Shown: positions 2,062 through 21,965, counted from the first letter of the stretch. The stretch: DNA of 64,000 nt from Eubacteriales bacterium (GCA_045634485.1 JAZRAJ010000091.1:166-64165), one strand, 5' to 3'. The notes: generated by a model not told the origin, from the letters alone. Made by a program: numbers and translations.

Positions 2062-2090
2062 CAAAATTTGGGGCGCAATGCAAACAAAAG
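2062..2090 (+). repeat. cargo-slot boundary repeat, left copy, island B
   Basis: CAAAATTTGGGGCGCAATGCAAACAAAAG. Related copies at 12385-12414, 17001-17031 and 21932-21965. Confidence 0.8.
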
Positions 2091-2149
2091 CGATATTATT
2101 TTTGCTTTTAAAAATATGTAATCTTTTCTTTGCATTTTTGTAAAAAAAC

Positions 2150-2178
2150 TTGAAAAAATGTCGAAAACGTGCTATAAT
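2150..2178 (+). promoter_or_regulatory. sigma-A type promoter heading the WYL/dynamin cargo
   Basis: TTGAAA (2150-2155), 17-nt spacer, TATAAT (2173-2178). Confidence 0.6.
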
Positions 2179-2184
2179 AAAAGA

Positions 2185-2340
2185 GCCGCATAATCCGAAT
2201 AATTGTACCGTTAAGGGAAGATACTTTGATAAAAAGGTGTTTTCTCGTTCTTTTCATACCTTAACGGAGGAAAAAGGATTGTGTGGCAACAATCGAGATG
2301 CACTTTTTTGTGCGTCTCTGTATGGAGGCGCACTTTTTTG
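2185..2340 (+). ncRNA. structured leader or small RNA with mutually exclusive hairpins ending in a terminator
   Basis: Stem CCGTTAAGG (2208-2216) pairs with CCTTAACGG (2259-2267). Segment 1 is GAGATGCAC (2295-2303), segment 2 GTGCGTCTC (2310-2318), segment 3 GAGGCGCAC (2325-2333), followed by T6. Pairing 2:3 gives a terminator; pairing 1:2 competes with it. Confidence 0.4.
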
Positions 2341-2448
2341 TTAATAACTCGGATTATATGACTTTATTCTATTGTATCATTTCAATTAGACACACCTATG
2401 TCTTACTGTTTTGATAAAATAAAAACATCAAAAAAGGAGGCAATTTTC

Positions 2449-3420
2449 ATGGAGTCAACGCGACAAGACAGAGCTCTTGAAATCTTCTTCCGCGCCTTGC
2501 GAGGAGAGGATATTGTTGTTAATGAATTAGCGAATGAATATGGTGTGTCAACTAAAAGTATATCAAGAAATATAAGTGATTTAAAATCATTTCTTGCCGA
2601 CCACAGAGAGCTTGTCGGAAATACCGAGCTTGAGTATTCATATAAGGATAAATGTTATAGATTATATATGGACGAGTTCCTATCCAACAAGGAGTTATTT
2701 GCGCTTGTTGAGGTAATGATTGGTGCAAGAGCTTTTTCAAAAATGGAGCTTTTGACATTGATTGATAAATTAAGAAACTTTACAACGGTTGATGATAGAA
2801 GTAAGCTTAACGAGCTTATAAGAAATGAGATATATCATTATCCCGAGGTGAAGCACGATTGCGAGAGTATTCAAGACAGTCTTTGGCAGATTGTGAATTG
2901 TATTAACGAGTGTAAGGAAATTACGATTGAATATTATCGCATGGATAGGCGGTGGAAAACTCATCGTATTTGTCCTGTATCTGTAATGTTTACAGATTAC
3001 TATTTTTACCTTATTGCATTTATGGCGGAGGGAAAAAAGGACAAGCCGTATTATTTTAGACTTGATCGCATTAAGAATGTTACCGAGCATAGAAAAAAGT
3101 ATTCGGTTGACGAGATTCCTGAGTTTGATGAGGGCTTACTTCGTAAGCGTAGTACGTTTATGTGGCAAGGTAAGCTACGAACAGTTCGTTTCGAATTTAG
3201 CGGGCCATCGGTTCAAGCGGTTCTTGATAAGCTTCCAACCGCAAGAATTATTGAGCGACTTGGAGATGGAAAATATCTTATTGAGGCTGAAACCTACGGC
3301 GACGGAATCAAGATGTGGCTGCTGAGTCAGGGTAGCTGGGTTAAGGTAGTAGCACCACAGGAATTTGTGGAGGAGATAAAAGAAGAAATTAATGAAATGA
3401 GTAGTTATTACATCGAATAA
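2449..3420 (+). CDS. HTH-WYL-WCX transcriptional regulator (BrxR/CapW/PafBC-like architecture)
   Basis: AAGGAGG RBS 7 nt before ATG 2449. N-terminal HTH (NELANEYGVSTKSISRNISDLKSF). WYL-domain signature (ITIEYYRMD...RICPVSVMFTDYYFYLIAF...PYYFRLDRIKNV). C-terminal WCX-like tail (KVVAPQEFVEEIKEEI). Confidence 0.85.
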   Translation: MESTRQDRALEIFFRALRGEDIVVNELANEYGVSTKSISRNISDLKSFLADHRELVGNTELEYSYKDKCYRLYMDEFLSNKELFALVEVMIGARAFSKMELLTLIDKLRNFTTVDDRSKLNELIRNEIYHYPEVKHDCESIQDSLWQIVNCINECKEITIEYYRMDRRWKTHRICPVSVMFTDYYFYLIAFMAEGKKDKPYYFRLDRIKNVTEHRKKYSVDEIPEFDEGLLRKRSTFMWQGKLRTVRFEFSGPSVQAVLDKLPTARIIERLGDGKYLIEAETYGDGIKMWLLSQGSWVKVVAPQEFVEEIKEEINEMSSYYIE

Positions 3421-3465
3421 TATTTGCCATTTTTTTAATGTTTTCACGTGTGAGGTAGAAATGAT

Positions 3466-5931
3466 ATGAAAGAAATCATATTGGCTAATGAAGTAAAAAA
3501 GATTCTCTCGTCATCCGAACAGAGAAAGCTTCGTTATGCCAGCGACTTAAACTGGTTAAATACATGGGAAAACTTATGGACAACAGACAGAATCCGTGTA
3601 GGCGTTGTCGGTGTTACGAGCAGCGGTAAATCAACTCTGATTAACGCTTTATTGGGCGACAATCTGTTGTCTGTTGCTGTTCGTCCTTCTTCCAGCCAAT
3701 TAGTGAGCTGTTCTTATGCAAAGGAACGCTCTGCTATAGTCTATTTCTTGGACGGCAAGAAAAAGAAAATCGGAGACAATGCACAGTTGAAAGATTCAAT
3801 CGTGCAGTATTCCGATGAAAGCTATAACAAGCGGAACGAAAAGCAGGTTGCCCAGCTTGAACTTTCTACGCCTAATTTTGACTTAGGCGAAGATGTTTTA
3901 TTGGTTGATAGCCCTGGCTTAGATGCAACCGGTTATGAAGCTCACGAAAAGCTGACCTTGGAAACGCTTCTTCCTACTGTCGATGTAGTCATCTTTGTTA
4001 CTACGGTCAAATCGGAAGTTGATAAGAAGATGAAGCAGACACTTGATACCATAGCAAAGTACAACTGCCCTGTGATGGTTGTTCAGAATATGCTTGATGC
4101 CGTTCGTCCGAGCGTTGATGGTAGAAAGAGTGCTGCCGACGTAGCTAAAGAGCGAATGAACCGAGTTCAATTAGCGGTAGAACAATCAAAGATAAAGAAT
4201 AAAAACGAAGTTAAAATCACTCAAATTTCCGCTGTTATGGCAATGCAATATCGTTGCCATAAAGAGCATAGCGAAGAAGAAACTCGTAATTTTAAGCGTT
4301 CCAGATATGAAACTTTTGTTGCCGGTGTAAAAGAATTGGTCGCATCTAAAAGACCGGAAATCGAAAAGCAGCGAGTGAAGACAATTTTGGAGCACATTGA
4401 GGAGCTTATTCGTCAAGAAGATAAGCGTACCCAAAATATCAGTACCAATATCCTTGTTGATAATACACTTTCTTCCGTATCCGAAAGTGTTACTGAAGCC
4501 TTGGACACTACATACGATGATATTCAAGGCGTTATTCAAGAATTACAGAGAATGTATGATAAATACTTCTCGGATAGCAACTCCACGAAAAAGAATAAGT
4601 CAACAGTTTCCTTTTTGGGGATTGCATCATCTCTATTCTCCTCCTCAAAGGATTCTCTTGATGAGGATGAAATCAAGGAAATCAAACGAGTAGTTAAGCT
4701 GTTTGAAACAAAGGTTGTCCAGAGTGTGCGTGGTTTCTCGACACAATGTTCAGCCGCAATCAAAAAATTAAATCTACCTACTCGTGATTTATGGAGTTAT
4801 AACGGACTTCCTCGTATGCCGGAAGTCGAAGTAAAAACCAAAACTGTAGAGCGCAGCAGAACGGTCAAGAAGAAAGGCTTCGGTCATACTCTCGGTAGAA
4901 TCTTTTCTTTGGGACTTTATAAAGGCACGGAAACAGAGCACTATACCGAAACTGTTGTTGACGATGAAGCAACACGGGAATCTGCCAAGCGTTATATTGA
5001 GCGACTTCAATTTGAATATGGCAAAACGCTCGAAGCTTGGCATACCAACGCTAAATCAACAGTTGCTTCTATACAGCAAGAAATCGACCTTCGTTTTGCA
5101 GCTATTCAAGAGAAAGAACAGCAAGTTATGGATGCTGCCGATTGGAAAGAAATCCGTGCGGCTCTTGAAAAGTACATGAGCGAATATGGTGGCATAAAGA
5201 CCCCTGTTGTACAAACGGAATCTACATCAAAAGAGCAACCACAAGAAACACAAGACAGCACCAAACTTATCAAGGTTTCTGCCCAAATTGCTCATTTACA
5301 TGATGCGGCTGAAAAATACCTTTTTGCCGTGCAGAGTTCCTCGTTTAATTACGCATTAGAAGCCAAAGAACGTAAAGGCTGTCCTGCTTTTGTAGTATCA
5401 AATAGCCCAGATAATTTAACGGACTTCCTTTATCGTTTCTACGGAATAAAAAAGAATGATTTCTCAAAGGAATCCATTCTACATCTTTCCGATGAGTTGA
5501 CCGTGGCTTGTTCCCCGACAGATGCTCAGTTGGAATCCTTGAAGCAACCGGCGACAGGCACGAACATTTTCCTGTTGATAAATGGCTTGCAGTTCCATAC
5601 CGAGTACGAAACAGCACTCCGTCATGCTGTTCAAGGGAACTTAAAAGATAATGATGCCCTGTTTTTCGTTATCCAAGATTTTGAAATATTGGCTAACGGA
5701 AATGCTATTACAGAGTGCATTAGAACCGTCCGGATGGAACAAGGTTCACACAAAGGCGTTGTTCTTATCAGCCATAAAAATCCCGTGTATAACATGGCTG
5801 TTATTCACGCTCAAACAACGGAAGGAAAACTCAAAGAAGAAACGATATTCTATAATTCTTTGACAACCAAGTTCCCATCATTGGTCGATGAAGTTGCAAA
5901 GAAACGTATAAACAACATATTGCGTACCTAA
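3466..5931 (+). CDS. dynamin-like GTPase A (821 aa) with an extra C-terminal alpha/beta-like domain
   Basis: G1 GVTSSGKSTLINALLG. G3 LLVDSPGLD. G4-like VVQNMLD. Long helical middle region. C-terminal ~220 aa unassigned. GAGGT RBS. Confidence 0.85.
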   Translation: MKEIILANEVKKILSSSEQRKLRYASDLNWLNTWENLWTTDRIRVGVVGVTSSGKSTLINALLGDNLLSVAVRPSSSQLVSCSYAKERSAIVYFLDGKKKKIGDNAQLKDSIVQYSDESYNKRNEKQVAQLELSTPNFDLGEDVLLVDSPGLDATGYEAHEKLTLETLLPTVDVVIFVTTVKSEVDKKMKQTLDTIAKYNCPVMVVQNMLDAVRPSVDGRKSAADVAKERMNRVQLAVEQSKIKNKNEVKITQISAVMAMQYRCHKEHSEEETRNFKRSRYETFVAGVKELVASKRPEIEKQRVKTILEHIEELIRQEDKRTQNISTNILVDNTLSSVSESVTEALDTTYDDIQGVIQELQRMYDKYFSDSNSTKKNKSTVSFLGIASSLFSSSKDSLDEDEIKEIKRVVKLFETKVVQSVRGFSTQCSAAIKKLNLPTRDLWSYNGLPRMPEVEVKTKTVERSRTVKKKGFGHTLGRIFSLGLYKGTETEHYTETVVDDEATRESAKRYIERLQFEYGKTLEAWHTNAKSTVASIQQEIDLRFAAIQEKEQQVMDAADWKEIRAALEKYMSEYGGIKTPVVQTESTSKEQPQETQDSTKLIKVSAQIAHLHDAAEKYLFAVQSSSFNYALEAKERKGCPAFVVSNSPDNLTDFLYRFYGIKKNDFSKESILHLSDELTVACSPTDAQLESLKQPATGTNIFLLINGLQFHTEYETALRHAVQGNLKDNDALFFVIQDFEILANGNAITECIRTVRMEQGSHKGVVLISHKNPVYNMAVIHAQTTEGKLKEETIFYNSLTTKFPSLVDEVAKKRINNILRT

Positions 5932-5954
5932 GAGGACGATGAAAGGAGATTGTC

Positions 5955-6860
5955 ATGCAATCTAAGGATATAGTAATGCAGGTTTCGGAAGAAACCGCTG
6001 AAGTAATGGAAGAAATATCAGAACAGCTTATGGAAGAATCTGATGCTCGTTTCGACGAAGTTGTGGAAGCCATCGAAGAAGCTGTAAAAAAAGTTGAAAG
6101 TCTCTATGCCGAGTTTACAGGCTATGCCGGTAATTCTAATAAGCAGCTAACATCAAACCAAGCGGAACTTATGGATAAGTTTGGTACTGTTTTGGATGCT
6201 ATTGGGGTGTTCAGAAAAGAAATTGGTGAACAAACAGTACAATCAAACGAAAAGGTTGATCGTTTGATTGTAATCATGGCTGATGTTCCCCAGCTCGTTC
6301 AAGCCGTTTCAAACAGCATCTCCGAATCCGCTGATGCGAGAGGCAAATTTGAAGCTACTCTTTTGGAAGATGTAAAGGGTCTTGCTCAAAGTCTTGTCGA
6401 ATTTCAGAAGCTTCAATCCGATGTTGTGGACAAGCTAAATGCTGATGACAGTCAAGAAAAGCTGATTTCTGCTCTAAATAAATTAACTGATATTGAAAAG
6501 GAAATTCTTCAAACCAAGGACGCTATCGGGAATGTTTCTGACACGCTTCGGAATTGTAGCACTCTTATCGAACAGCTTCTGTCCTCTGTGAAAGGCTTGC
6601 AGGAGAATGACGAAAAGATTCTTAATGTTGGTGAAGAAAACACCAAGAAGGCTGATGAGCTTGGAAAACAGACCGAGGAGACTTCAAAGCTACTCTTTGA
6701 AAAAATGGGCGATATATTGATCTATCTCGATACACTCTCCCATTCCGTTCAAACTATTTCGAAAAAGCAAAACGAACTCTGTGAAAAGCAAGCGGAGCTT
6801 GATAAAGATGTGAAATATTTGAAATTGCCATTCTTTAAAAGATGGTTTACGAAAGGATGA
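5955..6860 (+). CDS. acidic coiled-coil protein (301 aa) with a basic/aromatic C-terminal tail
   Basis: AAAGGAG RBS. E/D/Q/K-rich heptad-like sequence throughout. Ends in LKLPFFKRWFTKG. Its stop codon overlaps the next gene's start. Confidence 0.7.
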   Translation: MQSKDIVMQVSEETAEVMEEISEQLMEESDARFDEVVEAIEEAVKKVESLYAEFTGYAGNSNKQLTSNQAELMDKFGTVLDAIGVFRKEIGEQTVQSNEKVDRLIVIMADVPQLVQAVSNSISESADARGKFEATLLEDVKGLAQSLVEFQKLQSDVVDKLNADDSQEKLISALNKLTDIEKEILQTKDAIGNVSDTLRNCSTLIEQLLSSVKGLQENDEKILNVGEENTKKADELGKQTEETSKLLFEKMGDILIYLDTLSHSVQTISKKQNELCEKQAELDKDVKYLKLPFFKRWFTKG

Positions 6861-8704
6861 AGAAAATTATGGTAGACTATATTATAGGCGATTCAAGGTT
6901 GCTTGAATTGTTAGACAAATACTCTGCTGTTGTCGGTGAAGGAGCTAAGGCTTCCGACATTATCAGTAAATTGGCTCAGAATGTCCAAAACCCCGAACTC
7001 ATTGTGCCCGTGTTGGGTTCGCAAGGCATGGGAAAAAGCACTCTTATAAATGCTATCCTTGGTGCTAATATCCTTCCTAATGATGCAGATGAAACAACGT
7101 GTGTTCCTGTTGAAATCCGTTATGGCACAAACGAGAAGGCTGTGGTTTACTTCCAATCTGGAGAAACGGCAGAAATCGAACTCTCATGTGATTCGCTTCG
7201 TGAGTTCGTTGACAACAACGAAAACGACGGCAACGAAAAGTGTGTGTCTCACATTGCACTTGAAACGCCGAGCGAGTTACTTAAAACAGGTCTTGTCATT
7301 GTTGACCTTCCCGGTGTTGGCTCTTTGACACAGAATAACCACGAAACAACAATGAGATACATTCGCCAGTTGTGTACAGCAATTTTTGTTATCCCTACAG
7401 TACCCACAATCAGACGAAGTGAGGAAGTCTTTATTCGTGGTGCTTGGAGCAGTTTTTCTTCTGCTATTTTTGTTCAGAACAGATGGGATGACGAGACAGA
7501 CCAGGAAGTTAATGATTCTGTGGCTTTCAACTCTTTAGTATTAAATAACATCGCTAAAAACGCCAATACAACTTTCAACGGAAAGATTTGTGTGGTTAAT
7601 GCGTATAGAGCTATTCTAAGCAGATTACATAATGATTCCGCAGAGTGTGAGCGTTCTAATCTTCCGGAGCTTCTTACCGAGTTGGAAAACCTCGGTGAAA
7701 ATAGAATCAATCTGGAAACCGCCAATTTTAAGGCAAAAGTCGGTTCCTATATTGAGGCAGCCCAAGCTGCTATTATGCAGTATATTGCCGAAAGTCAAAT
7801 GAACGAAGAACAGCTCCGTGCTGAACGAGAGAGGATTTACGAGGAGTTTAATGCTGCTACTAACGAAATCCAGCAGCTTGTTGATGATGTTTTGGAGTGT
7901 GTAGAAGACGAAAAAAACAAAGCAGACATTTTCGCCGGAAAATTGGCTAAAGAATCTGCTGAAAGTCTTCGTGCCGACACTCACAAATTGATAGGCAATG
8001 GTATTGTTGATGGCGAGCAGTTGACGGAGGCGTTTTCTGACTATCAAGAGAAGTATCTTTTGGATGCGGTTGAGCAGCACTACGATTATATGAATACCAT
8101 GACCTACGAGTTAGGCAAAAAACTTGAAGTTTTGGCAGAAAAGATTTCACTTGAACGAGCATCTTCCTTTGAAGCTCAGAAGTTTGAAAACGGACAAGCT
8201 TTCAAGTTTGAGAAAGGGTTGGAGTTTGGTATTGACCTTGCTGGAGCCATTGGTGGTACATATACTGCTGCTGCAGTTGGTGGCATGGCGTGTTGGACTA
8301 GTGGCAAAATCGGTGCAGCTCTTGGTTCTGCTGGTGGACCTATTGGTACTGCAATAGGTATTGTGGCTGGTATTGCTGTAGGTGTTGTTGTTGGACTTAT
8401 AGGAAAGAAAACTAAGCATAGCATTACTGCTAAACGTGGCTCACAAGCAAAAAAAGCAATCGAGCCTTTCATCGAGGAATTTCAAGATAAAATCTATGTG
8501 TCTATTTCCTCAAACATTAACGCAGTTATGGAGAGCATCACGGATATTCTGCAATCCTATATAGAAGACCGCAGAGCCTACTATGAAGATATGATGCAGG
8601 CGAAAGAACGTGCTGCTGATGCAGACCATGAAAGCAAATTTGACGTTGCCGAGCTGAATGAGCATTACGCTTATCTTGAAAGCAAAAAGGAGGCTTTGAA
8701 ATGA
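6857..8704 (+). CDS. dynamin-like GTPase B (~615 aa) with a glycine-zipper membrane hairpin
   Basis: G1 GSQGMGKSTLINAILG. G3 VIVDLPGVGS. G4-like VQNRWDD. Hydrophobic Gly-rich stretch GAIGGTYTAAAVGG...GIVAGIAVGVVVGLIGKK (nt ~8238-8410). The start is taken as ATG 6857 (ATGA overlap with the upstream stop); 6842 or 6869 are possible. Confidence 0.85.
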   Translation: MKKIMVDYIIGDSRLLELLDKYSAVVGEGAKASDIISKLAQNVQNPELIVPVLGSQGMGKSTLINAILGANILPNDADETTCVPVEIRYGTNEKAVVYFQSGETAEIELSCDSLREFVDNNENDGNEKCVSHIALETPSELLKTGLVIVDLPGVGSLTQNNHETTMRYIRQLCTAIFVIPTVPTIRRSEEVFIRGAWSSFSSAIFVQNRWDDETDQEVNDSVAFNSLVLNNIAKNANTTFNGKICVVNAYRAILSRLHNDSAECERSNLPELLTELENLGENRINLETANFKAKVGSYIEAAQAAIMQYIAESQMNEEQLRAERERIYEEFNAATNEIQQLVDDVLECVEDEKNKADIFAGKLAKESAESLRADTHKLIGNGIVDGEQLTEAFSDYQEKYLLDAVEQHYDYMNTMTYELGKKLEVLAEKISLERASSFEAQKFENGQAFKFEKGLEFGIDLAGAIGGTYTAAAVGGMACWTSGKIGAALGSAGGPIGTAIGIVAGIAVGVVVGLIGKKTKHSITAKRGSQAKKAIEPFIEEFQDKIYVSISSNINAVMESITDILQSYIEDRRAYYEDMMQAKERAADADHESKFDVAELNEHYAYLESKKEALK

Positions 8705-10913: not shown

Positions 10914-10914
10914 T

Positions 10915-11247: not shown

Positions 11248-11252
11248 TACTT

Positions 11253-14177: not shown

Positions 14178-14405
14178 GGGGTTGCAGATTTTGTGAAAAT
14201 ATGATATAATGATCTTGTTTATCAAGAGTGTACGAAATAAAGCGAAAAATAAGAGTTTTGTGGTGTTTTATATAGAAAAAAGCAAAATGCAACCGGTAGT
14301 TGACACATTGAAAGCTGGCGGTTGGTAGTGTGCAAGTGCGATTTGTGCTATAATATAGGCACGATAAAGCGCAGGCTTTACGAATTTATCAAACGAGGTA
14401 TTTTT

Positions 14406-15206
14406 ATGATTTTGGCAGATAAGATTATTAGATTGCGAAAAAAGAATGGTTGGTCACAAGAGGAGCTTGCAGATAAAATGAATGTATCCAGACAAGCTGT
14501 TTCAAAATGGGAAAGTGCGCAAAGCATCCCCGATTTAGAAAAAATATTACAGCTTAGCAAGTTGTTTTGTGTTACAACAGATTATTTGTTAAAGGATGAT
14601 ATTGAGGATGAAGAATTTACGAATGATTCGTATGATGCGTCCGTTAAAAAAATCACCATAGAAGAGGCGAACATTTATCTCAATCAAAGAAAAAAAGCTT
14701 CTTGGCGTATTGCGCTTGCTACATTTTTATGCATTATATCTCCCATAACTCTCATTATTTTGACTATATTATCGGAACAACCTAATTCTATTGTAACGGA
14801 AATAACAGCATGCGTAATTGGATTAATTGTTTTGTTTGCTGTTGTTTTGTGTGCTGTTCCGATTTTTATCTATTGCGGATTTAAAAACCAGCCGTATGAA
14901 TTTCTTGATAAGAATATTCCATTTGAGCTTGAATACGGAGTTAGAGGATTGGTAAACGAAAAGAAGAAAGCTTTAAGAACTGCTTATGTTACTTATAATA
15001 TAATCGCAACCTGTTTATGTATTTTTTCTGTTATTCCACTAATTTTATTATCTTTTACGGAAAACGAGGTGCTTATTGCGGTTGCACTTGCTGTAGCTTT
15101 AGTTATTGTAGGTGTAGGCGTAGGAATGTTTATCGTAGTCGGAACTCAAAACGCAAGTATGCAAAGGCTTCTTAAAGAGGGGCACTTCGCTGAAAATCAG
15201 CGTTAA
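14406..15206 (+). CDS. membrane-anchored XRE-family HTH protein (266 aa)
   Basis: GAGG RBS before ATG 14406. HTH_3 motif (IRLRKKNGWSQEELADKMNVSRQAVSKWESAQSIPDLEKILQLSKLF), followed by about 4 hydrophobic helices. Confidence 0.8.
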   Translation: MILADKIIRLRKKNGWSQEELADKMNVSRQAVSKWESAQSIPDLEKILQLSKLFCVTTDYLLKDDIEDEEFTNDSYDASVKKITIEEANIYLNQRKKASWRIALATFLCIISPITLIILTILSEQPNSIVTEITACVIGLIVLFAVVLCAVPIFIYCGFKNQPYEFLDKNIPFELEYGVRGLVNEKKKALRTAYVTYNIIATCLCIFSVIPLILLSFTENEVLIAVALAVALVIVGVGVGMFIVVGTQNASMQRLLKEGHFAENQR

Positions 15207-15232
15207 AATAAAGATTTTACGGAGATAGTTAT

Positions 15233-15766
15233 ATGAAAAATAAAAATACTGATTTTAAAGAAATTGGTGGTTTTAGCGTTAATGACAAGAAACCACAAAC
15301 GGTATTGTCGGTAATGTTTTTGCTGATAGCAGGTGTTGGCGCAGGTATTGTGTTTCTTACTCAAGCATATGCAAACAATGTCGTTCCCGTTTGGGTAATA
15401 ATATTGTCGGTAATTGCTTTTATCATCATACACGAATTGATACACATTGTATTTATGTCTGCTTTTTCAAAAGGTAAGATTAATGCTAAAATCAAATTTC
15501 CTACGATAGCTGTTGGTTCAGATGCGTATTTTAGTAAAGTGCAATATGTAATTATCGCATTAGCGCCTGTTATTATTTTGGGAATAGCGAGCTTGATTTG
15601 CTTATTATTGCTTCCACACAAGCTATTATTCTCTATATTATTAGTATTAAATTTTGCTACTGCAAGTGGAGATTATATTTTAACTTATTATGCATTAAAG
15701 CAAAATAAGAATACATATTTTGTGGATATGGCAGAAAAAACAATAATTTATTCACAATGCGATTGA
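15233..15766 (+). CDS. polytopic membrane protein with HExxH motif (DUF3267-like putative zincin peptidase)
   Basis: IIHELIHIVF (HELIH) at a helix end. Several TM helices. 177 aa. Confidence 0.65.
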   Translation: MKNKNTDFKEIGGFSVNDKKPQTVLSVMFLLIAGVGAGIVFLTQAYANNVVPVWVIILSVIAFIIIHELIHIVFMSAFSKGKINAKIKFPTIAVGSDAYFSKVQYVIIALAPVIILGIASLICLLLLPHKLLFSILLVLNFATASGDYILTYYALKQNKNTYFVDMAEKTIIYSQCD

Positions 15767-15840
15767 TTATAAATGTATTGAGTAAATTGGATATGATATA
15801 ATAATTGTGTTAGTGAATAGTTTAATGAGGTAGTTTATAC

Positions 15841-16446
15841 ATGAATAAATATGAAAAACGTTCCCAAAAAAACTATGATAAAAAAGCAGAAAAATACGAT
15901 TCTACATTTGACGGAAAATTTACTGTAAAATTAAATGAAACCTTATGTGATATGATTTCGACAAATGATGAAGATATTATAGCTGATGTTGCTTGCGGTA
16001 ACGGACGCTTGTTGTATATGCTCGCTCAAAAAAAATCGTTTAAAGGATATGGCGTTGATCTTTCTGAAAAGATGATTTTAGAAGCGAAAAAGCAAAATCC
16101 TAAAATGGATTTTTTCGTTGCGGGGTGTGAAAATCTTCCGTTTAAAAATCAAGAAATAGATATAATGACGGTTTGTGCAGCATTTCATCATTTTCCGGAT
16201 ATTCAAAAATTTGCCCAAGAAGCAGGTAGAGTGATAAAGAAAAATGGAGAATTATATATCGCAGATGTATATTTGCCCACATTTTTCAGATTGATATGTA
16301 ATCCATTTGTGAAGTTGTCAAAATCCGGTGATGTTAAATTTTATTCGCCAAAAGAAATTGTTGAACTGTTTGAAAATAATGGCTTTGTAAAAAATAGCGT
16401 TGAAATAAAAGGTAAGTTTCAACTTATAAAATTACAAAGAATTTGA
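15841..16446 (+). CDS. class I SAM-dependent methyltransferase (201 aa)
   Basis: Motif I DVACGNGRLL. Post-I GVDLSEKM. Methyltransf_11-like layout. Confidence 0.8.
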   Translation: MNKYEKRSQKNYDKKAEKYDSTFDGKFTVKLNETLCDMISTNDEDIIADVACGNGRLLYMLAQKKSFKGYGVDLSEKMILEAKKQNPKMDFFVAGCENLPFKNQEIDIMTVCAAFHHFPDIQKFAQEAGRVIKKNGELYIADVYLPTFFRLICNPFVKLSKSGDVKFYSPKEIVELFENNGFVKNSVEIKGKFQLIKLQRI

Positions 16447-16570
16447 TTGATTTTATCGTAAATATGCATAAAAGGCTGACGAATTTTTAATCGTCAGCCT
16501 TGAATTTTTGATACTTTTTTGATGCTGTACTGTACGGAAATAGTTTCACGGTATAGCACCGAAAAGAAAA

Positions 16571-16747: not shown

Positions 16748-16781
16748 AAAAAAGCCCAACGCGATTGCGTTAGGCTTTTTT
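16748..16781. terminator. bidirectional hairpin terminator abutting the tRNA-fragment repeat
   Basis: Same sequence as 1810-1843. Confidence 0.6.
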
Positions 16782-16783
16782 CT

Positions 16784-16828
16784 TGGCAGGGGCGGGAGGA
16801 CTCGAACCCGCGACCCACGGTTTTGGAG
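16784..16828 (-). repeat. 45-bp direct repeat of the tRNA-Trp 3' part; att junction between island B and island A
   Basis: Identical to 1846-1890 and 23953-23997. Confidence 0.95.
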
Positions 16829-17000
16829 TGGCTTAAAAGTGCCGTGAAGCCTTGAAAATGCTCGCTTTTTTGCACGTTTCAACGCACTTTTCACACTAAA
16901 CCACGTGTCGTAATTGTGTCTGAAAATTTTTGATGCTTTTTTGATGATATGATAAAATTTCAGCTTACATATTAGCCGCTAACGTACTTTTGACGCTCCT
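16829..17000. repeat. conserved integrase-distal island arm (non-coding)
   Basis: Aligns with 1891-2061. Contains TTGATGC-N5-TTGATGA at 16930-16948. Confidence 0.85.
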
Positions 17001-17031
17001 CAAAATTTGGGGAGCTATAAACAAAGAAGAA
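17001..17031 (+). repeat. cargo-slot boundary repeat, left copy, island A
   Basis: CAAAATTTGGGGAGCTATAAACAAAGAAGAA. Confidence 0.8.
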
Positions 17032-17099
17032 TAATTTATAAAGATGAAAGGCTTAATGTAAAGAAAAAATAATTATTTTAATAAAGATACTTTACTTTT

Positions 17100-17128
17100 A
17101 CGCTGAAATGTGATATAATTTTCAGCGT
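17100..17128 (+). promoter_or_regulatory. abiE promoter -10 embedded in a 9-bp inverted repeat (putative AbiEi operator)
   Basis: ACGCTGAAA-tgtgaTATAAT-TTTCAGCGT. TATAAT is at 17114-17119, and the ATG is 18 nt after the repeat. Confidence 0.55.
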
Positions 17129-17145
17129 AAAAGGTAGGTGGTTTT

Positions 17146-17739
17146 ATGACAAAGACGGAAAAGTTAAATGATTTAATTAAATTAAGTAATGGATATCTTT
17201 ATATTGCCGATGCGGAGAAGCTTGGTATTTCTAAGGTTTATATTCGAGAATACGTTCTTGCTAACAATCTTGAACGTGTGGCGCATGGATTATATAAGTC
17301 TTCTGATGTTTGGACGGATGATCTCTATATTTTGACATTTAATAATAAAAAAGCGGTATATTCATTTGATACTGCTCTTATGTTAAATGGGCTAACCGAG
17401 CGAGAGCCATCGGAAATATTCGTCACTGTATCAAGATCATACAATGCTTCGCACTTGCGTAGTAAGGGTATTATTGTTAATTATGTTAAAGATGAATGGT
17501 TAGATTTAGGGCGAACTGTTGCTAAAACCGTCTATGGGAATGAAGTGTCGGTTTATGATATGGAGAGAACGATTTGCGATATTATTCGTGTGAGGGATAA
17601 AAAAGATCCGCAGATGTTTACCTATGCTATAAAAGAATACGCAAAAAGTGCAAATAAGAATCTCCCAAGACTTATGAAATATGCAAAGGAATTCGGCGTA
17701 GAAGCGGAATTGCGTAAATATATGGAGGTGTTGTTGTGA
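17146..17739 (+). CDS. abiEi: AbiEi-family antitoxin / transcriptional regulator (197 aa)
   Basis: N-terminal winged-helix-like LIKLSNGYLYIADAEKLGISKVYIREYVLANNLERVAHGLY. GTGA overlap with the downstream AbiEii gene. Size and order are typical of AbiE pairs. Confidence 0.8.
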   Translation: MTKTEKLNDLIKLSNGYLYIADAEKLGISKVYIREYVLANNLERVAHGLYKSSDVWTDDLYILTFNNKKAVYSFDTALMLNGLTEREPSEIFVTVSRSYNASHLRSKGIIVNYVKDEWLDLGRTVAKTVYGNEVSVYDMERTICDIIRVRDKKDPQMFTYAIKEYAKSANKNLPRLMKYAKEFGVEAELRKYMEVLL

Positions 17740-18599
17740 TTATAAAGACATCAAGACAACTCAAGGATAAGGTATCGAATCTATCGGGAAATGACAGCAA
17801 GAAAGCGCAGACATTGATAAGAAAATATATGATGGAACGCTTCCTCGCAAGAATATCCCATTCAAAGTATAAAAACAACTTCATCCTCAAGGGTGGAATG
17901 CTCGTTTCTGCGCTTGTAGGCGTAGAATCAAGGGCTACTATGGATATTGATACAACCGTAAGAATGTTGCCTTTAACAAAGGATAATGCAATTGAAGTGA
18001 TTGCCGAAATTATGAAAATAGATCTTGATGACGATATTTCCTATGAAATCAAAAAGGCTGAGGATATTATGGAAGAACACGACTATTCAGGCGTTCGTTT
18101 TACCATTTCGGTAACGCTTGAGAAGCTGCGTGATACCATTAAAATTGACATTTCCACCGGTGATGAAATAACGCCATCTGCTATTGAATTTTCTTATCCT
18201 ATGATGTTTGACGACGAAAGGATTAATATTTGGTCATATAATCTTGAAACTATGCTTGCAGAGAAGCTTGAAACTGTTATTGCAAGATCAACGCTTAATA
18301 CGAGGATGCGTGATTTTTACGATATACATATATTATGGTCAGAAAAAGCAAATATGATCAATATTGAAACGCTTCGTCGTGCAATTATCAATGTTGCTCG
18401 TAAGAGAGGAACTCTTGAACTCTTTGATAATATGGATGAAATTCTTGATGATATTGTGGAAAGCGATTATCTTCGTAATAATTGGAATAATTATAGAAAA
18501 GGCAGTTACTATGTTGGTGACCTTGAATGGGCGGATGTGCTTGAAATAACAGTTAATATACTAAAAAATGAGATTGGAAGCTTGAGCGTTAAGGCGTGA
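17736..18599 (+). CDS. abiEii: AbiEii/AbiGii-family nucleotidyltransferase toxin (287 aa)
   Basis: GTG start overlapping the upstream stop. FILKGGMLVSALVG...RATMDIDT nucleotidyltransferase motif. ETMLAEKLETV and FYDIHIL are typical of the DUF1814 family. Confidence 0.85.
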   Translation: MIIKTSRQLKDKVSNLSGNDSKKAQTLIRKYMMERFLARISHSKYKNNFILKGGMLVSALVGVESRATMDIDTTVRMLPLTKDNAIEVIAEIMKIDLDDDISYEIKKAEDIMEEHDYSGVRFTISVTLEKLRDTIKIDISTGDEITPSAIEFSYPMMFDDERINIWSYNLETMLAEKLETVIARSTLNTRMRDFYDIHILWSEKANMINIETLRRAIINVARKRGTLELFDNMDEILDDIVESDYLRNNWNNYRKGSYYVGDLEWADVLEITVNILKNEIGSLSVKA

Positions 18600-18640
18600 A
18601 AAGATGATTTTATAGTTAAATAAATTATTGCGAGGTTATT

Positions 18641-21600
18641 ATGTCTGAAACGGATAATAAAAAATCAATTATAGATAATATCACACTTAAAGAGCTGATA
18701 GAAAAATATGGATTGCCGATAGATGTGAAAAAATCGTGGTGGTTTGGCGATTACTATTTTCGTGCAGAAAAAATTCAGCATACAGGCGTTGTTGCGGGTA
18801 CAATTTTTAAAGATGGGAAAATACATGAGTCTAAAAGTTTTTCTCAAGGTGAGATTATGCAATTATTGACTCCTTCATCAATTGAAGAAAGTAAAAGTGC
18901 AAAAAAGAAATCTTATATATTCTTGCCTAATCCAAACAAATTGGATACCGATATTACGCATTATATCAAGGGAGAAACTAAACTTTTTGTTAAAAGTGGC
19001 AATTCAATCAAAGTTGCTATTTTTGACCATTTTAGAGAGAAAAATGATCAACTTCTCATATATGTGATTCCAGAAGGGGCAATAAATGTGAAATTCTATC
19101 CTTTCCCACAAAGTGAATTAGTATTTCCAAATAAGGATGATGCCAGAAGTAAAATTGATAAAGAAAGTCGTCGATTTGAAATTTCGCATTCTCGTAATAT
19201 TGTTTCTGCATTTAAGAAAAAACCTAAATCGCGTAAGCCTTCTGAAAATACATCTGATGAGTATGAATATGAACGTGGATATCATCAAAAAGTGGATAGT
19301 AAATTAGAGGATGATTTGCGCATTCCTGAAGAAAATAAACGTGTCGCTCAATACGATTTGGCTTATGCAGATGAAGAATTAAGAGAAGAAATTGTTTCTG
19401 CTCGTGAAAATAAATATATTGTTGACGATCATACTATAATTTCACACAAAATAAGAAAGGAAACTGCTGATTCTCGTATTCTTTCTGCACAAGATGAGAT
19501 ATTAAGAATACGAGGAATACGCAGTAAACCTTATTTTGCACGAATAGATTGTGGAGAAAGTATGCGAGATTTGCATACAGTTTATCTTGGAAATGATGAT
19601 ATTGATGGATATGTTGTTTCTTGGAAAAATGCTGAATACGGTAATGCATATTATCAATCTTCTGTGCTTCAAGGACGACAAGATATTGTTTTAGCTTTAA
19701 AACGTATTGTGGATATTACATATGGTGATTTCAAGGGATATGAAGATGAGATTTCATTATATGCCGATGGTGACATTTTTGAAAAAACAGAGAATGAAAT
19801 TGTTGAAGGAAAGACCGACGAACTTTTGAATAGATTGTTGCTCGAAAGTCGTGCGGATAAGCAAGTCCATGATATTATTAAAACCATACAAGGTGAGCAG
19901 TACGATATTATAACAGCGGATTTCAGAAAAAATGTAATAGTTAACGGATGCGCTGGTTCCGGAAAGACAATGATTATGTACCATCGCCTTTCCTATATGG
20001 CGTATAATTATCAATTATATCTTGGAAAAACACTTGACACTAATTTAGTATATATAATATCTCCGTCGCCGTTTTTTGATTCAAGTAATGATGAATTGTT
20101 AACAAAATTATCAATCGGTACAGTTTATCAAGCGCCATTTTCTAATTTTGTGGATAAACTTCTTGATTTATATTGTTCAAAAAAATCAATAATACCATTC
20201 TATGGATTAACGTCTTACTTGGATGCTCTTGGAGATAGTCCATCTGAATTTTTTAATACGAATGAGTTTAACTCGTTTACCGATGTTATTGAGGCGGTTG
20301 ATGAAAACACTTTGTTATATAAACAATGGGCACTTTCTTTGATAAATCAATTTTTAACGGCACAGAATTTCAAAAAAATTGATTTTGAAGTGATTGCAAA
20401 ATATGCAAATGAGGCTTCTACTTTTTTCTCTTCCTCGGATTATTATTATAATGAGTGTTTTGCAAATAAGAATAATGGTGAAACTAAATATTATTCAAAA
20501 CAAGCCATTGTTGGAATATCTATGGAAAATGTAATCGCTGCTTTAAATACGAAGCATGGAAAATCAAGTGCTATATACAAGCAAAGATTGAAGAAAATAA
20601 CCAAGTATCTTTCTATACTAAGATGTTGTTTATCATTAAAAACAAAGAAAACTTTAGGATCAGAAATTTCAACGGATATATCTGATTTTTGGGACTTGCT
20701 TGATAATACAAAAGTGTTTGAAAAAATGCTGTCAATTATCCTTGCGGAAAGATTGTTTGAATGTATATCCACTTCTGTAAATGTGGAAAGAGGATATATG
20801 CTAAAGTGTTTATATGCTTTTCAAAATACATATAGTAAAAATGAATCTGAAGTTGTAAAATTATATTTTCTACATTCTCTTAGTAAAAAATATGGTGCTA
20901 TTGTATCCGAAGATGCTTTAGTTTTTGTCGATGAATTTCAAAATTATTCTGCTTTCGAGTTGCAATGTGTAAAAGAAGCTTATGAACATCCCGTATTTAA
21001 CCTTTTCGGTGATTACGATCAGCGCATAGAGGAAAAGGGAGCAAACTTGAAAGCTCAATTGAAATCAATTTTAGTAGAACCTAATATATATAATATCAAT
21101 GTGAATTATCGTAATGCGAAACAAATTACAGAATATATTAATAGATGTGTACATAAAAACATGCAATCAATAGGAGTAGATGGATCGGTTATCGAAGTTG
21201 CGCTCGAAGATTGTGATTTTAAACTATCTGATAGAACTGCAATTATTTGCAAGGATATTAAAATGGCATTAACATTTATTAAGCGATATATAGATGCTAA
21301 GCTAATAAATAATTCTACTTCTACTAAAGAATTGGCTATGGATAAATATACATTAATTACTGTTGATGATTCAAAAGGACTTGAATTTGATACTGTGTAT
21401 GTACTAGATTATGGAATGTCAGATAACGAAAAATATGTTGCATATACTCGTGCATTAGATACGCTTATTGTTATTTCAGATGATTTAGAAGCAATAAAAA
21501 AATCTGAAGAGGAGGCAGAGAAAAAAAGAAGAGAGCAGGAACGGTTAACATTAGAAACACGAAAAAAAGAAGAAAATTTTCAAAAACATATTGTTGAGGA

Positions 21601-21874
21601 AAATGCTGAATATGAATTTGAAGAAGAAAAAATAAAAATTCGTGAAGAAGCTGAACGTAAACTACGTATGGAAATTGAACGTCAAGTTCGTGAAGAGATT
21701 GCACATGAAATTCGCGAAGAAATTGAACATCAACTAAGAGAAGAAGCAGATGTTGCTGAGAAGAGAAAAAAAGAATATAATCGAATGTGTAATGTTTGTC
21801 AATATTGTGGAGGACGTTTTAAGGGATTGCTCGTTAAGCGTTGCTCTGCTTGTGGTAAACGAAAAGATTATTAA
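18641..21874 (+). CDS. HelD-like UvrD-family (SF1) helicase with unassigned N-terminal domain, C-terminal E/K/R coiled coil and 4-Cys zinc ribbon (1077 aa)
   Basis: HelD-type segment KPYFARIDCGE...TVYLGNDDIDGYVVSWKNAEYGNAYYQS. Walker A GCAGSGKT (19946-19969). DEFQN Walker B. GLEFDTVYVL...YVAYTRALDTLIVI. Tail REEIAHEIREEIEHQLREE, then CNVCQYCGG...CSACGKR. Confidence 0.8.
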   Translation: MSETDNKKSIIDNITLKELIEKYGLPIDVKKSWWFGDYYFRAEKIQHTGVVAGTIFKDGKIHESKSFSQGEIMQLLTPSSIEESKSAKKKSYIFLPNPNKLDTDITHYIKGETKLFVKSGNSIKVAIFDHFREKNDQLLIYVIPEGAINVKFYPFPQSELVFPNKDDARSKIDKESRRFEISHSRNIVSAFKKKPKSRKPSENTSDEYEYERGYHQKVDSKLEDDLRIPEENKRVAQYDLAYADEELREEIVSARENKYIVDDHTIISHKIRKETADSRILSAQDEILRIRGIRSKPYFARIDCGESMRDLHTVYLGNDDIDGYVVSWKNAEYGNAYYQSSVLQGRQDIVLALKRIVDITYGDFKGYEDEISLYADGDIFEKTENEIVEGKTDELLNRLLLESRADKQVHDIIKTIQGEQYDIITADFRKNVIVNGCAGSGKTMIMYHRLSYMAYNYQLYLGKTLDTNLVYIISPSPFFDSSNDELLTKLSIGTVYQAPFSNFVDKLLDLYCSKKSIIPFYGLTSYLDALGDSPSEFFNTNEFNSFTDVIEAVDENTLLYKQWALSLINQFLTAQNFKKIDFEVIAKYANEASTFFSSSDYYYNECFANKNNGETKYYSKQAIVGISMENVIAALNTKHGKSSAIYKQRLKKITKYLSILRCCLSLKTKKTLGSEISTDISDFWDLLDNTKVFEKMLSIILAERLFECISTSVNVERGYMLKCLYAFQNTYSKNESEVVKLYFLHSLSKKYGAIVSEDALVFVDEFQNYSAFELQCVKEAYEHPVFNLFGDYDQRIEEKGANLKAQLKSILVEPNIYNINVNYRNAKQITEYINRCVHKNMQSIGVDGSVIEVALEDCDFKLSDRTAIICKDIKMALTFIKRYIDAKLINNSTSTKELAMDKYTLITVDDSKGLEFDTVYVLDYGMSDNEKYVAYTRALDTLIVISDDLEAIKKSEEEAEKKRREQERLTLETRKKEENFQKHIVEENAEYEFEEEKIKIREEAERKLRMEIERQVREEIAHEIREEIEHQLREEADVAEKRKKEYNRMCNVCQYCGGRFKGLLVKRCSACGKRKDY

Positions 21875-21881
21875 AATATCT

Positions 21882-21909
21882 TTTTTAGTTTTTAGTTTTT
21901 AGTTTTTAG
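21882..21909 (+). repeat. tandem heptamer (TTTTTAG)x4
   Basis: Read directly, just after the helicase stop codon. Confidence 0.9.
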
Positions 21910-21931
21910 TTTGGCTAATTGGTTTACTTCT

Positions 21932-21965
21932 CCAAATTTGGGGCGCAATAAACAAAGAAAAAGAA
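21932..21965 (+). repeat. cargo-slot boundary repeat, right copy, island A
   Basis: CCAAATTTGGGGCGCAATAAACAAAGAAAAAGAA. Confidence 0.8.

Follow-up and report, generated by a model that had tools for sequence, protein, structure and literature searches.

In integrons, variable cargo that lacks a recombinase lies between direct copies of a short site, attC, which starts within a few bases of a stop codon; arrays of such sites follow attI and the Pc promoter, the cassettes are mostly single promoterless genes of one orientation, and attC conserves structure and acts as a folded bottom strand for the integrase IntI. In pdif modules and IMEX, modules that have no recombinase and occur in unrelated backbones are flanked by sites of ~28-32 bp, on which host Xer recombinases act; these dif-like sites consist of two 11-bp inverted arms, with inner ends of the TTATG type, around a 6-bp spacer, and they occur as inverted pairs in pdif modules. 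The modular evolution of phages involves linker or boundary sequences between functional modules, which are far less conserved than the motif described here, and cluster A mycobacteriophages possess stoperators, 13-14 bp sites for a phage-encoded repressor. Tandem accretion and CIME formation occur at att sites, and plasmid cointegration mediated by a relaxase is known from the Pre/RS_A system. Deletion between direct oriT copies occurs in the Mob/oriT system in Bacillus (PMC4902927), and TrwC integrates DNA into oriT copies (PMC3264647). Two further reports describe oriT-only islands (iOriT; bioRxiv 10.64898/2026.01.13.699239), a class lacking transfer genes, and islands at tmRNA that combine an integrase with defence genes (PMC12595487).

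The DNA analyzed here (the window, 64 kb) contains three islands inserted in tandem into a tRNA-Trp gene (A, B and the partial island C; Table 1). Repeat family analysis showed that 49 nt of the tRNA 3' end are repeated at the boundaries of each island; as in IMEs, a tyrosine integrase adjoins the tRNA, whose 3' end is directly repeated at the far end. The integrases of islands A and B, in which Phage_integrase, Phage_int_SAM_3 and Phage_int_M are the only Pfam domains, are tRNA-targeting, arm-binding enzymes of the lambda type; judged by sequence, the TTGATGCTTTTTTGATGCT repeats are probably their arm-type sites. While Pfam searches revealed no relaxase gene in the window, related islands encode relaxases either of the MobA/VirD2 type (PF03432) or of the MobL type, and the family hence consists of integrative mobilizable elements. 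The islands in the window are relaxase-less derivatives that have kept an oriT-like hairpin region (region X), a putative oriT.

Table 1. Features of the tandem islands in the 64-kb window
Feature	Position	Strand	Evidence or remarks
tRNA-Trp gene, integration target	23953..24028	-	ARAGORN; Rfam tRNA
49-nt tRNA-Trp 3'-end copy, att junction island C/island B	1842..1890	.	repeat family D5
49-nt tRNA-Trp 3'-end copy, att junction island B/island A	16780..16828	.	repeat family D5
49-nt tRNA-Trp 3'-end copy	23949..23997		repeat family analysis
Candidate arm-type integrase sites TTGATGCTTTTTTGATGCT, attR arm of island B	1992..2010	+	repeat family D10; putative function
TTGATGCTTTTTTGATGCT equivalent, attR arm of island A	16930..16948		repeat family D10; putative function
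TTGATGCTTTTTTGATGCT equivalents, attL arms	1570..1588, 16508..16526, 23782..23800		repeat family D10; putative function
Tyrosine integrase, island B	12957..14177	+	conserved promoter CTGGATAT..TGTGGTATTGT at about 12902-12932
Tyrosine integrase, island A	22471..23691	+	promoter at about 22412-22441
Perfect sigma-70 promoter match, TTGACA-17-TATAAT with TG	12451..12479	+	inside ~90-bp island B insert, missing in island A
Long hairpin with TGATGCTC arms, then T-run, island B	12548..12610	+	island A counterpart 22007-22067
Region X, island B, oriT-like: GCAGGAATAAG, variable hairpin, ACATCG, CGGTCGGCAACGCCGACCG hairpin	12683..12760	+	upstream of RHH-relaxase genes in relatives
Region X, island A, oriT-like	22139..22215	+	
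Motif m(1), island B, attR arm/cargo boundary	2061..2092	+	profile, 22 bits; second half degenerate
Motif m(2), island B, cargo/integrase-module boundary	12384..12416	+	profile, 40 bits
Motif m(1), island A	17000..17033	+	profile, 29 bits
Motif m(2), island A	21931..21964	+	profile, 34 bits
Divergent motif m(3), island A	23696..23729	+	4 nt past integrase stop, 33 nt before attL arm repeats; repeat family D7
Divergent motif m(3), partial island C	815..848	+	directly past island C integrase stop
Cargo, island B: WYL regulator, three dynamin-like GTPases, small ORFs	2093..12383	+	Pfam, PADLOC
WYL regulator, island B cargo	2398..3420		Pfam, PADLOC
Dynamin-like LeoA/LeoBC-type GTPases, island B cargo	3466..5931, 6842..8704, 8701..10500		Pfam, PADLOC
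Cargo, island A	17034..21930	+	AbiEi, AbiEii, helicase
AbiEi, island A cargo	17146..17739		
AbiEii, island A cargo	17736..18599		
UvrD/GajB-like helicase, island A cargo	18641..21874		
Second cargo slot, island B, 3' of integrase gene: HTH membrane protein, DUF3267 peptidase, methyltransferase	14322..16446	+	

An initial annotation of this DNA had pointed to four direct repeats of about 30 bp, and these are present (2062-2090, 12385-12414, 17001-17031, 21932-21965). Chance would account for none of them; the 27-mer had no match in 100 shuffles, and AAACAAAGAA was counted four times against 0.46 expected. A profile built from these four sequences and run over the window yielded six matches only, all of them within islands; the two further matches (814-849 and 23695-23729; m(3) in Table 1) are weaker and both lie directly 3' of integrase stop codons. 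Across more than 200 related contigs we found about 160 distinct copies of what is a self-contained motif of 32 bp with the consensus T-CAAAATTTG-N4-GC-N1-3-AAACAAAGAA, which lies between the modules of a large mobile-island family that inserts at tRNA genes in gut Clostridia (gut Oscillospirales). In 137 non-redundant copies, conservation sets in at position -1, where the information content climbs from background to almost 2 bits, and is lost again after about +31; neither flank is conserved. Of 143 matches in loci that could be oriented by the integrase gene, 141 are co-oriented with it; the remaining two score 8 bits and echo the motif's palindromic core. The consensus contains a single dyad, CAAA-A-TTTG, with no relationship between its outer blocks, and the gap between the two conserved blocks varies from 1 to 3 nt (31, 30 and 91 of 161 copies, respectively). 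Islands carry two to three copies; a search of the 72,556 PLSDB plasmids retrieved none.

The motif is situated at the boundaries of modules. Within the window, its copies separate the attR arm, the cargo, a module composed of the oriT-like region and the integrase gene, and the attL arm. Throughout the family it is found between attR arm and cargo (35 copies follow attR arm repeats), between cargo or relaxase and integrase (38 copies lie upstream of the integrase gene), and between integrase and attL arm (16 copies lie after the integrase gene or before attL arm repeats). It occurs 3-70 nt past the stop codons of relaxase genes of both families, and in island A, as in the related loci L051, L052 and L096, one copy lies on either side of the integrase gene.

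The genes initially assigned to the bracketed cargos, WYL/dynamin in island B and AbiE plus helicase in island A, were recovered; neither cargo contains a recombinase gene, and the two are unrelated: BLAST found no match between islands A and B from the distal arm to the region past the second repeat. Among the complete islands of other genomes, 15 of 22 have cargo bracketed by motif copies, and at least 10 unrelated cargos occupy the slot (ABC transporter, MatE, BlaR1, PLP enzyme, FtsX, DUF6076 and defence genes are among those bracketed). The proposal that a specific ~30-bp sequence brackets the cargo as a direct repeat, in a manner that mere divergence would not produce, is supported. Cargos measure 1-10 kb, are often multi-gene, lie on either strand and have promoter-like sites of their own. 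Two are single-gene Fic cassettes (L143, L199) with the flanking copies located within 17-114 nt; these copies are 94-95% identical over 37-39 nt and have rare variants in common. Locus L059 holds three copies and two cargo units, L189 a tandem array of copies, and L047 two integrase-less, att-flanked mini-elements of 1.06 kb with a single copy.

In pairs of islands that differ in their cargo, homology often begins exactly at the integrase-proximal copy (L045/L048, L046/L044, L042/L039) and stops at the distal copy (L059/L045, and island A versus island B). Between the latter two, backbone homology had been described as resuming exactly at the second repeat; it does so at or just after this repeat, but island B has ~90 bp extra there, including the perfect sigma-70 promoter. 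In Acutalibacter-type islands, backbone homology begins 120-370 nt before the integrase-proximal copy and stops ~100 nt before the distal one; hence, motif copies do not coincide with the breakpoints in every case. Neighbouring copies of a locus are 2.0 edits apart in the variable part, compared with 3.4 for random pairs, and 8 of 36 adjacent pairs are identical (1.9% expected). Copies of one locus have rare variants in common, as is expected from duplication or exchange; such variants could also stem from gene conversion among repeats with a different role. The empty backbone with one copy (arm, motif, integrase) for which the initial annotation suggested a search was not present among 195 copies, nor did we find a cassette common to two loci with both ends at motifs. 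Upstream copies or the whole motif are missing from L026, L028, L037 and L057 and from the closest integrase relatives. The observation that had been named as speaking against cassette insertion, family members with cargo boundaries at variable positions without the repeat, thus applies in part.

We compared the motif with known types of sites. The left flank had been reported to pair, with compensatory changes, with the GGGG block in three copies; only two copies can do so (12379-12398, 16996-17015). In 171 distinct family copies, pairing of the left flank with the block after TTTG equals the shuffled expectation in four registers, and there is no covariation. Folding was better than that of shuffled sequences in only one of five window copies (z -3.1). 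Local alignment of the motif with tRNA-Trp, on both strands, is at chance level (685-1852 of 2000 shuffles as good; 740 and 685 for the att core). The same consensus adjoins integrases that are only 24-28% identical, and in L128, which represents the divergent lineage with an integrase of only 26% identity, a tRNA-Met-type fragment and arm repeats TATGGGTCAG instead of TTGATGMT are found; use of the motif by the island's own integrase is consequently unsupported. In these sequence comparisons, the motif does not vary with the lineage of the integrase or its att specificity. An overlap of 6-8 bp between inverted binding arms, as in a tyrosine-recombinase core, is missing, and the consensus is without the two ~11-bp inverted arms and 6-bp spacer of a Xer/dif-like site. 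No terminator call overlaps any copy, no -35 signal was detected at spacings of 13 to 21 in 137 copies, and no Rfam 15 family matched any copy, even at E values up to 1. An attC site is likewise rejected, given the lack of a conserved hairpin and the multi-gene cargos with promoters of their own in either orientation. The designation as a nested att or integron-like site thus could not be upheld.

Collectively, the motif system looks like a new form of cassette-like organization. It resembles integrons in the recombinase-less variable cargo between direct copies of a short site close to stop codons, in loci with more than two sites and in the single-gene Fic cassettes. Unlike attC, it conserves sequence and forms no hairpin, its cargos are often multi-gene with promoters of their own, and it is not tied to the lambda-type, tRNA-targeting integrase of the islands. 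As in pdif modules, sites of similar length flank recombinase-less modules in unrelated backbones and the catalyst would be host-encoded, but the symmetry of dif is missing and all copies are direct. With IMEs, iOriT, tmRNA islands and CIMEs, the islands have in common the tyrosine integrase, the att duplication of a tRNA 3' end, tandem arrays, defence or other cargo without transfer genes, the relaxases of relatives and integrase-less att-flanked forms (L047); in the accessible parts of the IME, iOriT and tmRNA-island descriptions, no conserved internal motif is repeated at module boundaries. Phage linkers and stoperators are also short conserved sequences of one orientation between functional modules; in contrast to stoperators, no common regulator is encoded in the islands.

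We tentatively favor the reading that the motif is a recombination joint for the insertion and exchange of modules. A module that is circular or comes in from elsewhere would recombine through its single copy with a resident copy, so that it becomes bracketed by two direct copies, and recombination between these would remove it. The asymmetry and variable internal spacing of the motif favor recognition on single-stranded DNA or via a conserved host or helper factor, with RecA exchange over the short common sequence as a fallback; the island's own integrase is unlikely to be the enzyme acting there. An exchange joint is supported by the sharp self-contained limits, the strand specificity, the presence at every kind of boundary, the bracketing of unrelated cargos, the variants common within a locus, the homology breakpoints, the L047 mini-elements, the L189 array and the sameness of the motif whatever the integrase lineage or att specificity. 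Against it speak the lack of a recombination product (no empty island among the 195 copies), of the inverted-repeat layout of tyrosine or serine recombinases and of a linked dedicated recombinase, the family members without the motif and the breakpoint offsets of the Acutalibacter type. The strong conservation of 32 bp is also easier to reconcile with a routine cis-acting function than with rare module exchange. Such a function could be that of a directional binding site for a conserved host factor (roadblock, insulator or regulator site) which separates the transcription of modules or controls the integrase promoter, its boundary position reflecting usefulness there and not DNA exchange. This is a less likely explanation, albeit one of some weight: copies lie right past integrase, relaxase and RHH stop codons, 38 of 203 within 30 nt of the end of a plus-strand ORF; in many islands the conserved integrase promoter follows the motif at a distance of 3-70 nt; the motif occupies strictly one strand relative to the integrase gene; its sharp limits are binding-site-like; it depends on neither integrase nor relaxase type, as would suit a host factor; and purifying selection would readily follow. 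However, it contains neither a hairpin with U-tract nor a -35 element, its distance to the promoter ranges from 3 to >500 nt, cargo genes occur on both strands, with 42 of 203 copies next to the end of a minus-strand gene, and the variable block spacing would rotate the two halves against each other on double-stranded DNA. Rare variants and flanks that the copies of a locus have in common are not predicted, and no candidate factor is known.

The model of the initial annotation, in which the island's tyrosine integrase recombines a nested att or integron-like site that is duplicated on cassette insertion, would account for direct repeats around recombinase-less cargo; the integrase is the sole gene common to all elements and adjoins one copy, or even lies between two. 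The chance-level similarity to the att core, the missing inverted arms and attC-like hairpin, the variable cargo orientation and the divergent integrases make it very improbable. The least probable explanation is an RNA-level element, which an RNA-binding protein, an sRNA or a processing enzyme would recognize in the 3' or 5' UTR of transcripts. Strand specificity, tolerance of variable spacing by RNA and the many loci with the motif between the integrase stop codon and a downstream terminator hairpin would suit it, but Rfam matches, covariation, a stable fold and a complementary copy on the opposite strand are all missing, and for many copies (after att arms, or abutting minus-strand gene ends) a plus-strand transcript would not be expected. 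Somewhat more credit, although still rather little, is due to an oriT-type nick or termination site recognized on single-stranded DNA by a relaxase of a related mobilizable element or conjugative helper: transfer would begin at one copy and stop at the following one, and cargo and backbone would move as separate circles that can re-insert at a resident copy. The family does consist of mobilizable elements, their relaxases being of the MobA/VirD2 or the MobL type, and the motif adjoins relaxase genes, with which it is co-oriented and directly 3' on the same strand in at least seven loci (L051, L059, L121, L122, L150, L161, L202). An asymmetric site with flexible spacing suits single-strand recognition, the motif is kept in relaxase-less islands as in oriT-only hitchers (bioRxiv 10.64898/2026.01.13.699239), and direct oriT repeats can delimit a segment that relaxases excise or insert without a classical recombinase (PMC4902927; PMC3264647). 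Unlike an oriT, the motif has no conserved adjoining inverted repeat, occurs in more than one copy per island and with two different relaxase families, and was not found in the PLSDB plasmids; nicking at it would be a candidate activity only. It is also missing from some relaxase-bearing members: the MobL elements L026 and L037 are without it but have retained region X upstream of their RHH-relaxase genes, and region X is therefore the better oriT candidate. That a relaxase acting in trans moves cassettes and an integrase-attP backbone, partitioned by motif copies, as separate circles is doubtful; if true, it would amount to a relaxase-driven cassette system in gut Clostridia, integron-like in its working and entirely different in its chemistry. 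The TGCGCCG sequence of the motif also occurs in AAGTGCGCCGGG upstream of the L051 mob operon, a sequence that we take to resemble a MOBQ nick core.

Three integrase genes (85–91% identical to each other at the DNA level), each located upstream of one tRNA-Trp copy, are present in the window; hence, with three integrase genes and three tRNA-Trp copies, it comprises three tandem islands (A, B and the partial island C) at a single tRNA gene, beyond which the host genes metF and metH are found. The tRNA 3′ end recurs between the islands as repeat family D5. The cargo of island B consists of a WYL regulator and three dynamin-like LeoA/LeoBC-type GTPases, and that of island A of AbiEi/AbiEii and a UvrD/GajB-like helicase. 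These assignments by Pfam and PADLOC, which detected no recombinase in either cargo, agree with the initial annotation of unrelated, recombinase-free cargo modules. Islands A and B are homologous over a 170-nt distal arm (the attR arm), through the end of the first repeat flanking the cargo; homology restarts shortly past the second, integrase-proximal repeat, behind which island B possesses an additional ~90 bp with a perfect match (12/12) to a sigma-70 promoter. A second variable slot extends from the integrase gene to the attL arm, the integrase-side arm beside the tRNA copy. It harbors three ORFs in island B (an HTH membrane protein, a DUF3267 peptidase and a methyltransferase) and one minus-strand ORF in island C, is empty in island A, and in three relatives (L205, L213, L218) contains HipA, a kinase, Fic or DUF4379.

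Coordinates of features in the window and in related loci (L-numbers)
Feature	Position	Strand	Remark
tRNA-Trp gene	23953-24028	-	integration target
D5 repeats	1842-1890; 16780-16828		last 45 nt of tRNA-Trp + 4 nt
Island C	ends at 1841		partial
Island B	1891-16779
Island A	16829-23948
Second slot, island B	14178-16507
Second slot, island C	849-1560
Second slot, island A	23730-23780
Weaker motif copies	814-849; 23695-23729	+	directly past integrase stop codons
Sigma-70 promoter match, island B	12451-12479		within the ~90-bp insert
TTTTTAG, four in tandem, island A	21886-21913		between helicase stop codon and integrase-proximal motif
Long hairpin with T-run, both islands	12548-12610; 22007-22067		between junction motif and region X
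Region X, island B	12683-12760
Region X, island A	22139-22215
Region X, L019	1985-2045
Region X, L026	4590-4650
Region X, L038	~9560-9640
Region X, L047	1640-1720
L047 mini-elements	1149-2212; 6870-7932		1.06 kb each
L128 integrase and tRNA 3′ fragment	3571-4060
L189 tandem array	1400-2250		122-bp unit
Minimal ~3-kb islands	about 8700-10000		L218/L221 coordinates
Gut-1 RNA (RF01706)	1732-1809; 16674-16747	-	72 and 60 bits
Gut-1 RNA, weaker match	16569-16654	+
Lysine riboswitch (RF00168)	46026-46200	-	83 bits; host DNA

The four ~30-bp repeats bracketing the cargo of islands A and B were all recovered, and they exceed chance: the 27-mer yielded no match in 100 shuffled sequences, and AAACAAAGAA was observed four times vs. 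0.46 expected. A profile of this junction motif, a 32-bp element, matched the 64-kb window six times, always on the plus strand and always within the islands; two of these copies are weaker. We fetched 77 related loci from Oscillospiraceae, Acutalibacter, Ruminococcus and related gut MAGs with the integrase of island A as the query (62–88% identity). Their insertion site is tRNA-Trp in every locus with a tRNA in range, and tandem arrays are common. All 123 matches at E<1 in the window and these loci lie on the integrase strand; after inclusion of 18 further loci the tally was 141 on this strand vs. two on the opposite one, the latter being 8-bit echoes of the palindromic core of the motif. A pattern scan found the motif in five IMG/VR contigs and in at least 120 metagenome contigs. 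Across 137 non-redundant copies, conservation begins abruptly at position −1, is gone near +31, and the flanks are at background level. The consensus reads T-CAAAATTTG-(CGCC)-GC-N1-3-AAACAAAGAA-(aagg), with a linker after the GC of 1, 2, or 3 nt in 31, 30, and 91, respectively, of 161 distinct copies.

Thirty-five copies are positioned past the attR arm, 20–190 nt inward of a conserved TTGATGMT-N3-TTGATGMT pair situated ~95 nt from the core; this distance is constant within sub-lineages and variable across the family. Another 38 lie 20–650 nt upstream of the integrase start, mostly 40–70 nt ahead of a conserved promoter (CTGGATAT..TGTGGTATTGT), and 16 are found just past the integrase stop codon and/or 29–41 nt ahead of the attL arm pair. 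The other 106 copies are on short contigs or at other internal positions; many of the 46 among them with flanks long enough for inspection sit tightly between gene ends. Counted over 203 copies, 38 follow the stop codon of a plus-strand ORF within 30 nt and 42 precede that of a minus-strand ORF within the same distance. Distal and integrase-proximal copies are both present in 15 of the 22 islands with a mapped left end, while four or five have one copy and two or three have none. One locus (L059) contains three copies and two cargo units. In L189, four or five copies occur in a tandem array, interleaved with GACGATGAGGACGATAAGGACGATGA repeats; the array unit looks like the C-terminal tail of a relaxase together with the motif.

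Exact-sequence look-ups with both window integrases queried returned no match. Contigs with integrases 84–91% identical mostly have another set of genes ahead of the integrase gene: HTH_36, an excisionase-like HTH_17 gene, and a 101-aa ORF that abuts the integrase gene; of the motif they retain the post-integrase copy only. The closest of these relatives (L218, L219, L221, L222) are minimal islands with this set of genes, devoid of cargo and of an upstream motif. L213, the same chromosomal locus from another sample, as seen from the metF and metH genes that follow, carries other cargo and region X (a conserved non-coding element); its integrase-proximal copy is degenerate. Bracketing by the motif is thus widespread in the family without extending to every member, and by the standard set in the initial annotation itself this counts in part against the cassette proposal.

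In many relatives a relaxase gene, either of the MobA/VirD2 type (PF03432; L051, L128) or MobL (PF18555; L019, L026), is located just upstream of the integrase gene, with an RHH or NikA/MobC protein encoded ahead of it. The motif follows the relaxase stop codon by 3–70 nt in at least seven loci, representing both relaxase types. Upstream of the RHH-relaxase genes of L019, L021, L022 and L026 lies region X, which consists of GCAGGATAAAG, a first hairpin whose sequence varies between lineages while its stem is preserved, ACAWCG, and a second hairpin with a GGCAACGCC loop. Rfam contains no match to it; RNAalifold recovered the second hairpin only, since the first could not be aligned in register. 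Region X is probably an oriT. Both window islands retain it, as do many relatives that have no relaxase. If region X is indeed an oriT, islands A and B would be relaxase-less derivatives of the recently described ‘oriT-only’ kind (bioRxiv 10.64898/2026.01.13.699239). Their gene content is like that of integrase-plus-defence islands at tmRNA (PMC12595487). The islands belong to known kinds: tandemly accreted, tRNA-integrating elements, probably mobilizable or oriT-only. L047 contains two integrase-less and gene-less elements in the order att copy, arm, one motif, region X, arm, att copy, with tRNA-Trp fragments at their ends and both arm-repeat pairs present; they are similar to cis-mobilizable elements (CIMEs), with only att and oriT-like DNA kept. 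The long hairpin preceding region X in islands A and B contains the arm-repeat word TGATGCTC in its arms.

Several comparisons bear on recombination at the motif. In three pairs of loci with the same integrase module and different cargo (L045/L048, L046/L044, L042/L039) the alignment starts exactly where the integrase-proximal copy begins, and in L059/L045, as in island A vs. B, the distal-arm alignment stops where the distal copy ends. In other island pairs the shared block starts 120–370 nt earlier, because region X is shared as well; breakpoints thus fall often, though not exclusively, at the motif. Copies from the same locus differ at non-conserved positions by a mean edit distance of 2.0 vs. 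3.4 for random copies, and 8 of 36 same-locus pairs are identical (1.9% expected). Extra flanking bases are often common to them, such as GGGG in all four window copies, CGGG..TGT (L179/L199), CATG (L143) and GGCGGT (L033). Two single Fic genes are each bracketed, within 17–114 nt, by copies 94–95% identical over 37–39 nt. No empty arm-motif-integrase island was present among 195 copies (the ‘core’ match of one candidate, L145, proved to be a false positive), and no cassette common to different loci with motifs at both ends was seen.

The reading that makes use of most of this evidence, which we put forward tentatively, is that the motif would serve as a recombination joint for the insertion and exchange of modules. 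It is suggested by a sharply bounded, asymmetric, one-strand element found at every kind of module boundary, by its independence of integrase, relaxase, tRNA and cargo, by its consistently direct orientation, and by the signs of duplication or homogenisation among neighbouring copies. The variable 1–3-nt spacing and the asymmetry would speak for a site recognised in single-stranded form, or by a conserved host or helper factor. That the island integrase itself acts on the motif, as the proposal of a nested att site implied, is very unlikely. An arm-type integrase site was rejected too: the arms have TTGATGMT pairs of their own, whose distance from the core is constant, with the motif beyond them at variable distance. 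The same motif lies 90–450 nt upstream of integrases of a second lineage (24–28% identical), one of which uses different arm repeats. In L128, a tRNA 3′ fragment whose anticodon loop reads CTCATAA (anticodon CAT in our reading, Met/Ile2 type) follows an integrase 26% identical to that of the window; TATGGGTCAG repeats replace TTGATGMT on both sides of this fragment, and the next island opens with the motif 10 nt past the last arm repeat. The motif is not integrase-specific. Its likeness to a degenerate, inverted tRNA-Trp anticodon-loop core (TGGGGCGC in the window vs. TGGGTCGC in the tRNA) was rejected as chance, since its alignment to tRNA-Trp scores like shuffled motifs; the motif is unrelated to the att core.

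An oriT-type site is a live, if rather improbable, possibility because relaxases are able to excise the segment between direct oriT copies and to insert DNA at such a copy (PMC4902927, PMC3264647); the motif, however, is multi-copy, accompanies relaxases of two families, and is not present in L026 or L037. Somewhat unlikely, in our estimate, is a directional host-factor site insulating modules from each other, which would account for the strong conservation and for the position past stop codons, but would leave the shared variants, the variable spacing and the copies abutting minus-strand genes unexplained. We consider a role as RNA to be the least likely of all. The compensatory hairpin of the initial annotation did not withstand scrutiny: in the window, left-flank pairing is confined to the copies at 12385 and 17001, of which only the latter folds better than shuffled sequences (z −3.1), and among 171 distinct copies the complementary fraction corresponds to the shuffled expectation in four registers (highest z 2.2), with no covariation. 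The motif matches no known RNA and was rejected as an intrinsic terminator; as a promoter (CAAAAT as −10, TTGTCA/TTGTAA upstream in some lineages) it has no general −35 signal. If a recombination joint, the motif would function like cassette-bounding sites such as attC, pdif or repeated oriT, while the defining features of none of these are found in it.

Other candidates were discarded as well. The consensus, as read, lacks the symmetry of dif, and likeness to Xer/dif, IHF, CodY or boxA sites, judged by eye, extends in no case past 5–7 bases. An apparent correlation of the tRNA-Trp likeness with host lineage fails for L013 and L052. In 12 metagenome contigs (the ‘GH43 group’) a lone motif seemed to border a variable stretch of host DNA; it proved to adjoin a decayed integrase and tRNA genes and so does not count as a clean host-only site. 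The motif is absent from PLSDB, and its phage matches are confined to two uncurated gut ‘Bacteriophage sp.’ records, both resembling island or host DNA. A full-text search with the motif core retrieved only unrelated papers and no description of it.

Should the motif be an exchange joint, it would account for the trading of defence, resistance and metabolic cargo among small integrase-only islands of gut Clostridia whose backbones differ in integrase, relaxase and tRNA target. Cargo slots could then be located in metagenomes by a simple sequence handle, and the enzyme could be sought with a testable 32-bp substrate. Even as a regulatory punctuation mark, it would be a widespread and sharply defined cis-element of abundant gut mobile elements.

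Two structured RNAs were detected in the window. The lysine riboswitch is an ordinary one and unrelated to the junction motif. Gut-1 RNA, a metagenome-derived orphan motif, scores above the Rfam gathering threshold within the GTGAAAT repeat run between the integrase-side arm and the tRNA fragment. It may belong to the att arm of these islands, since the attL arms of both C and B contain it; island A is without it.
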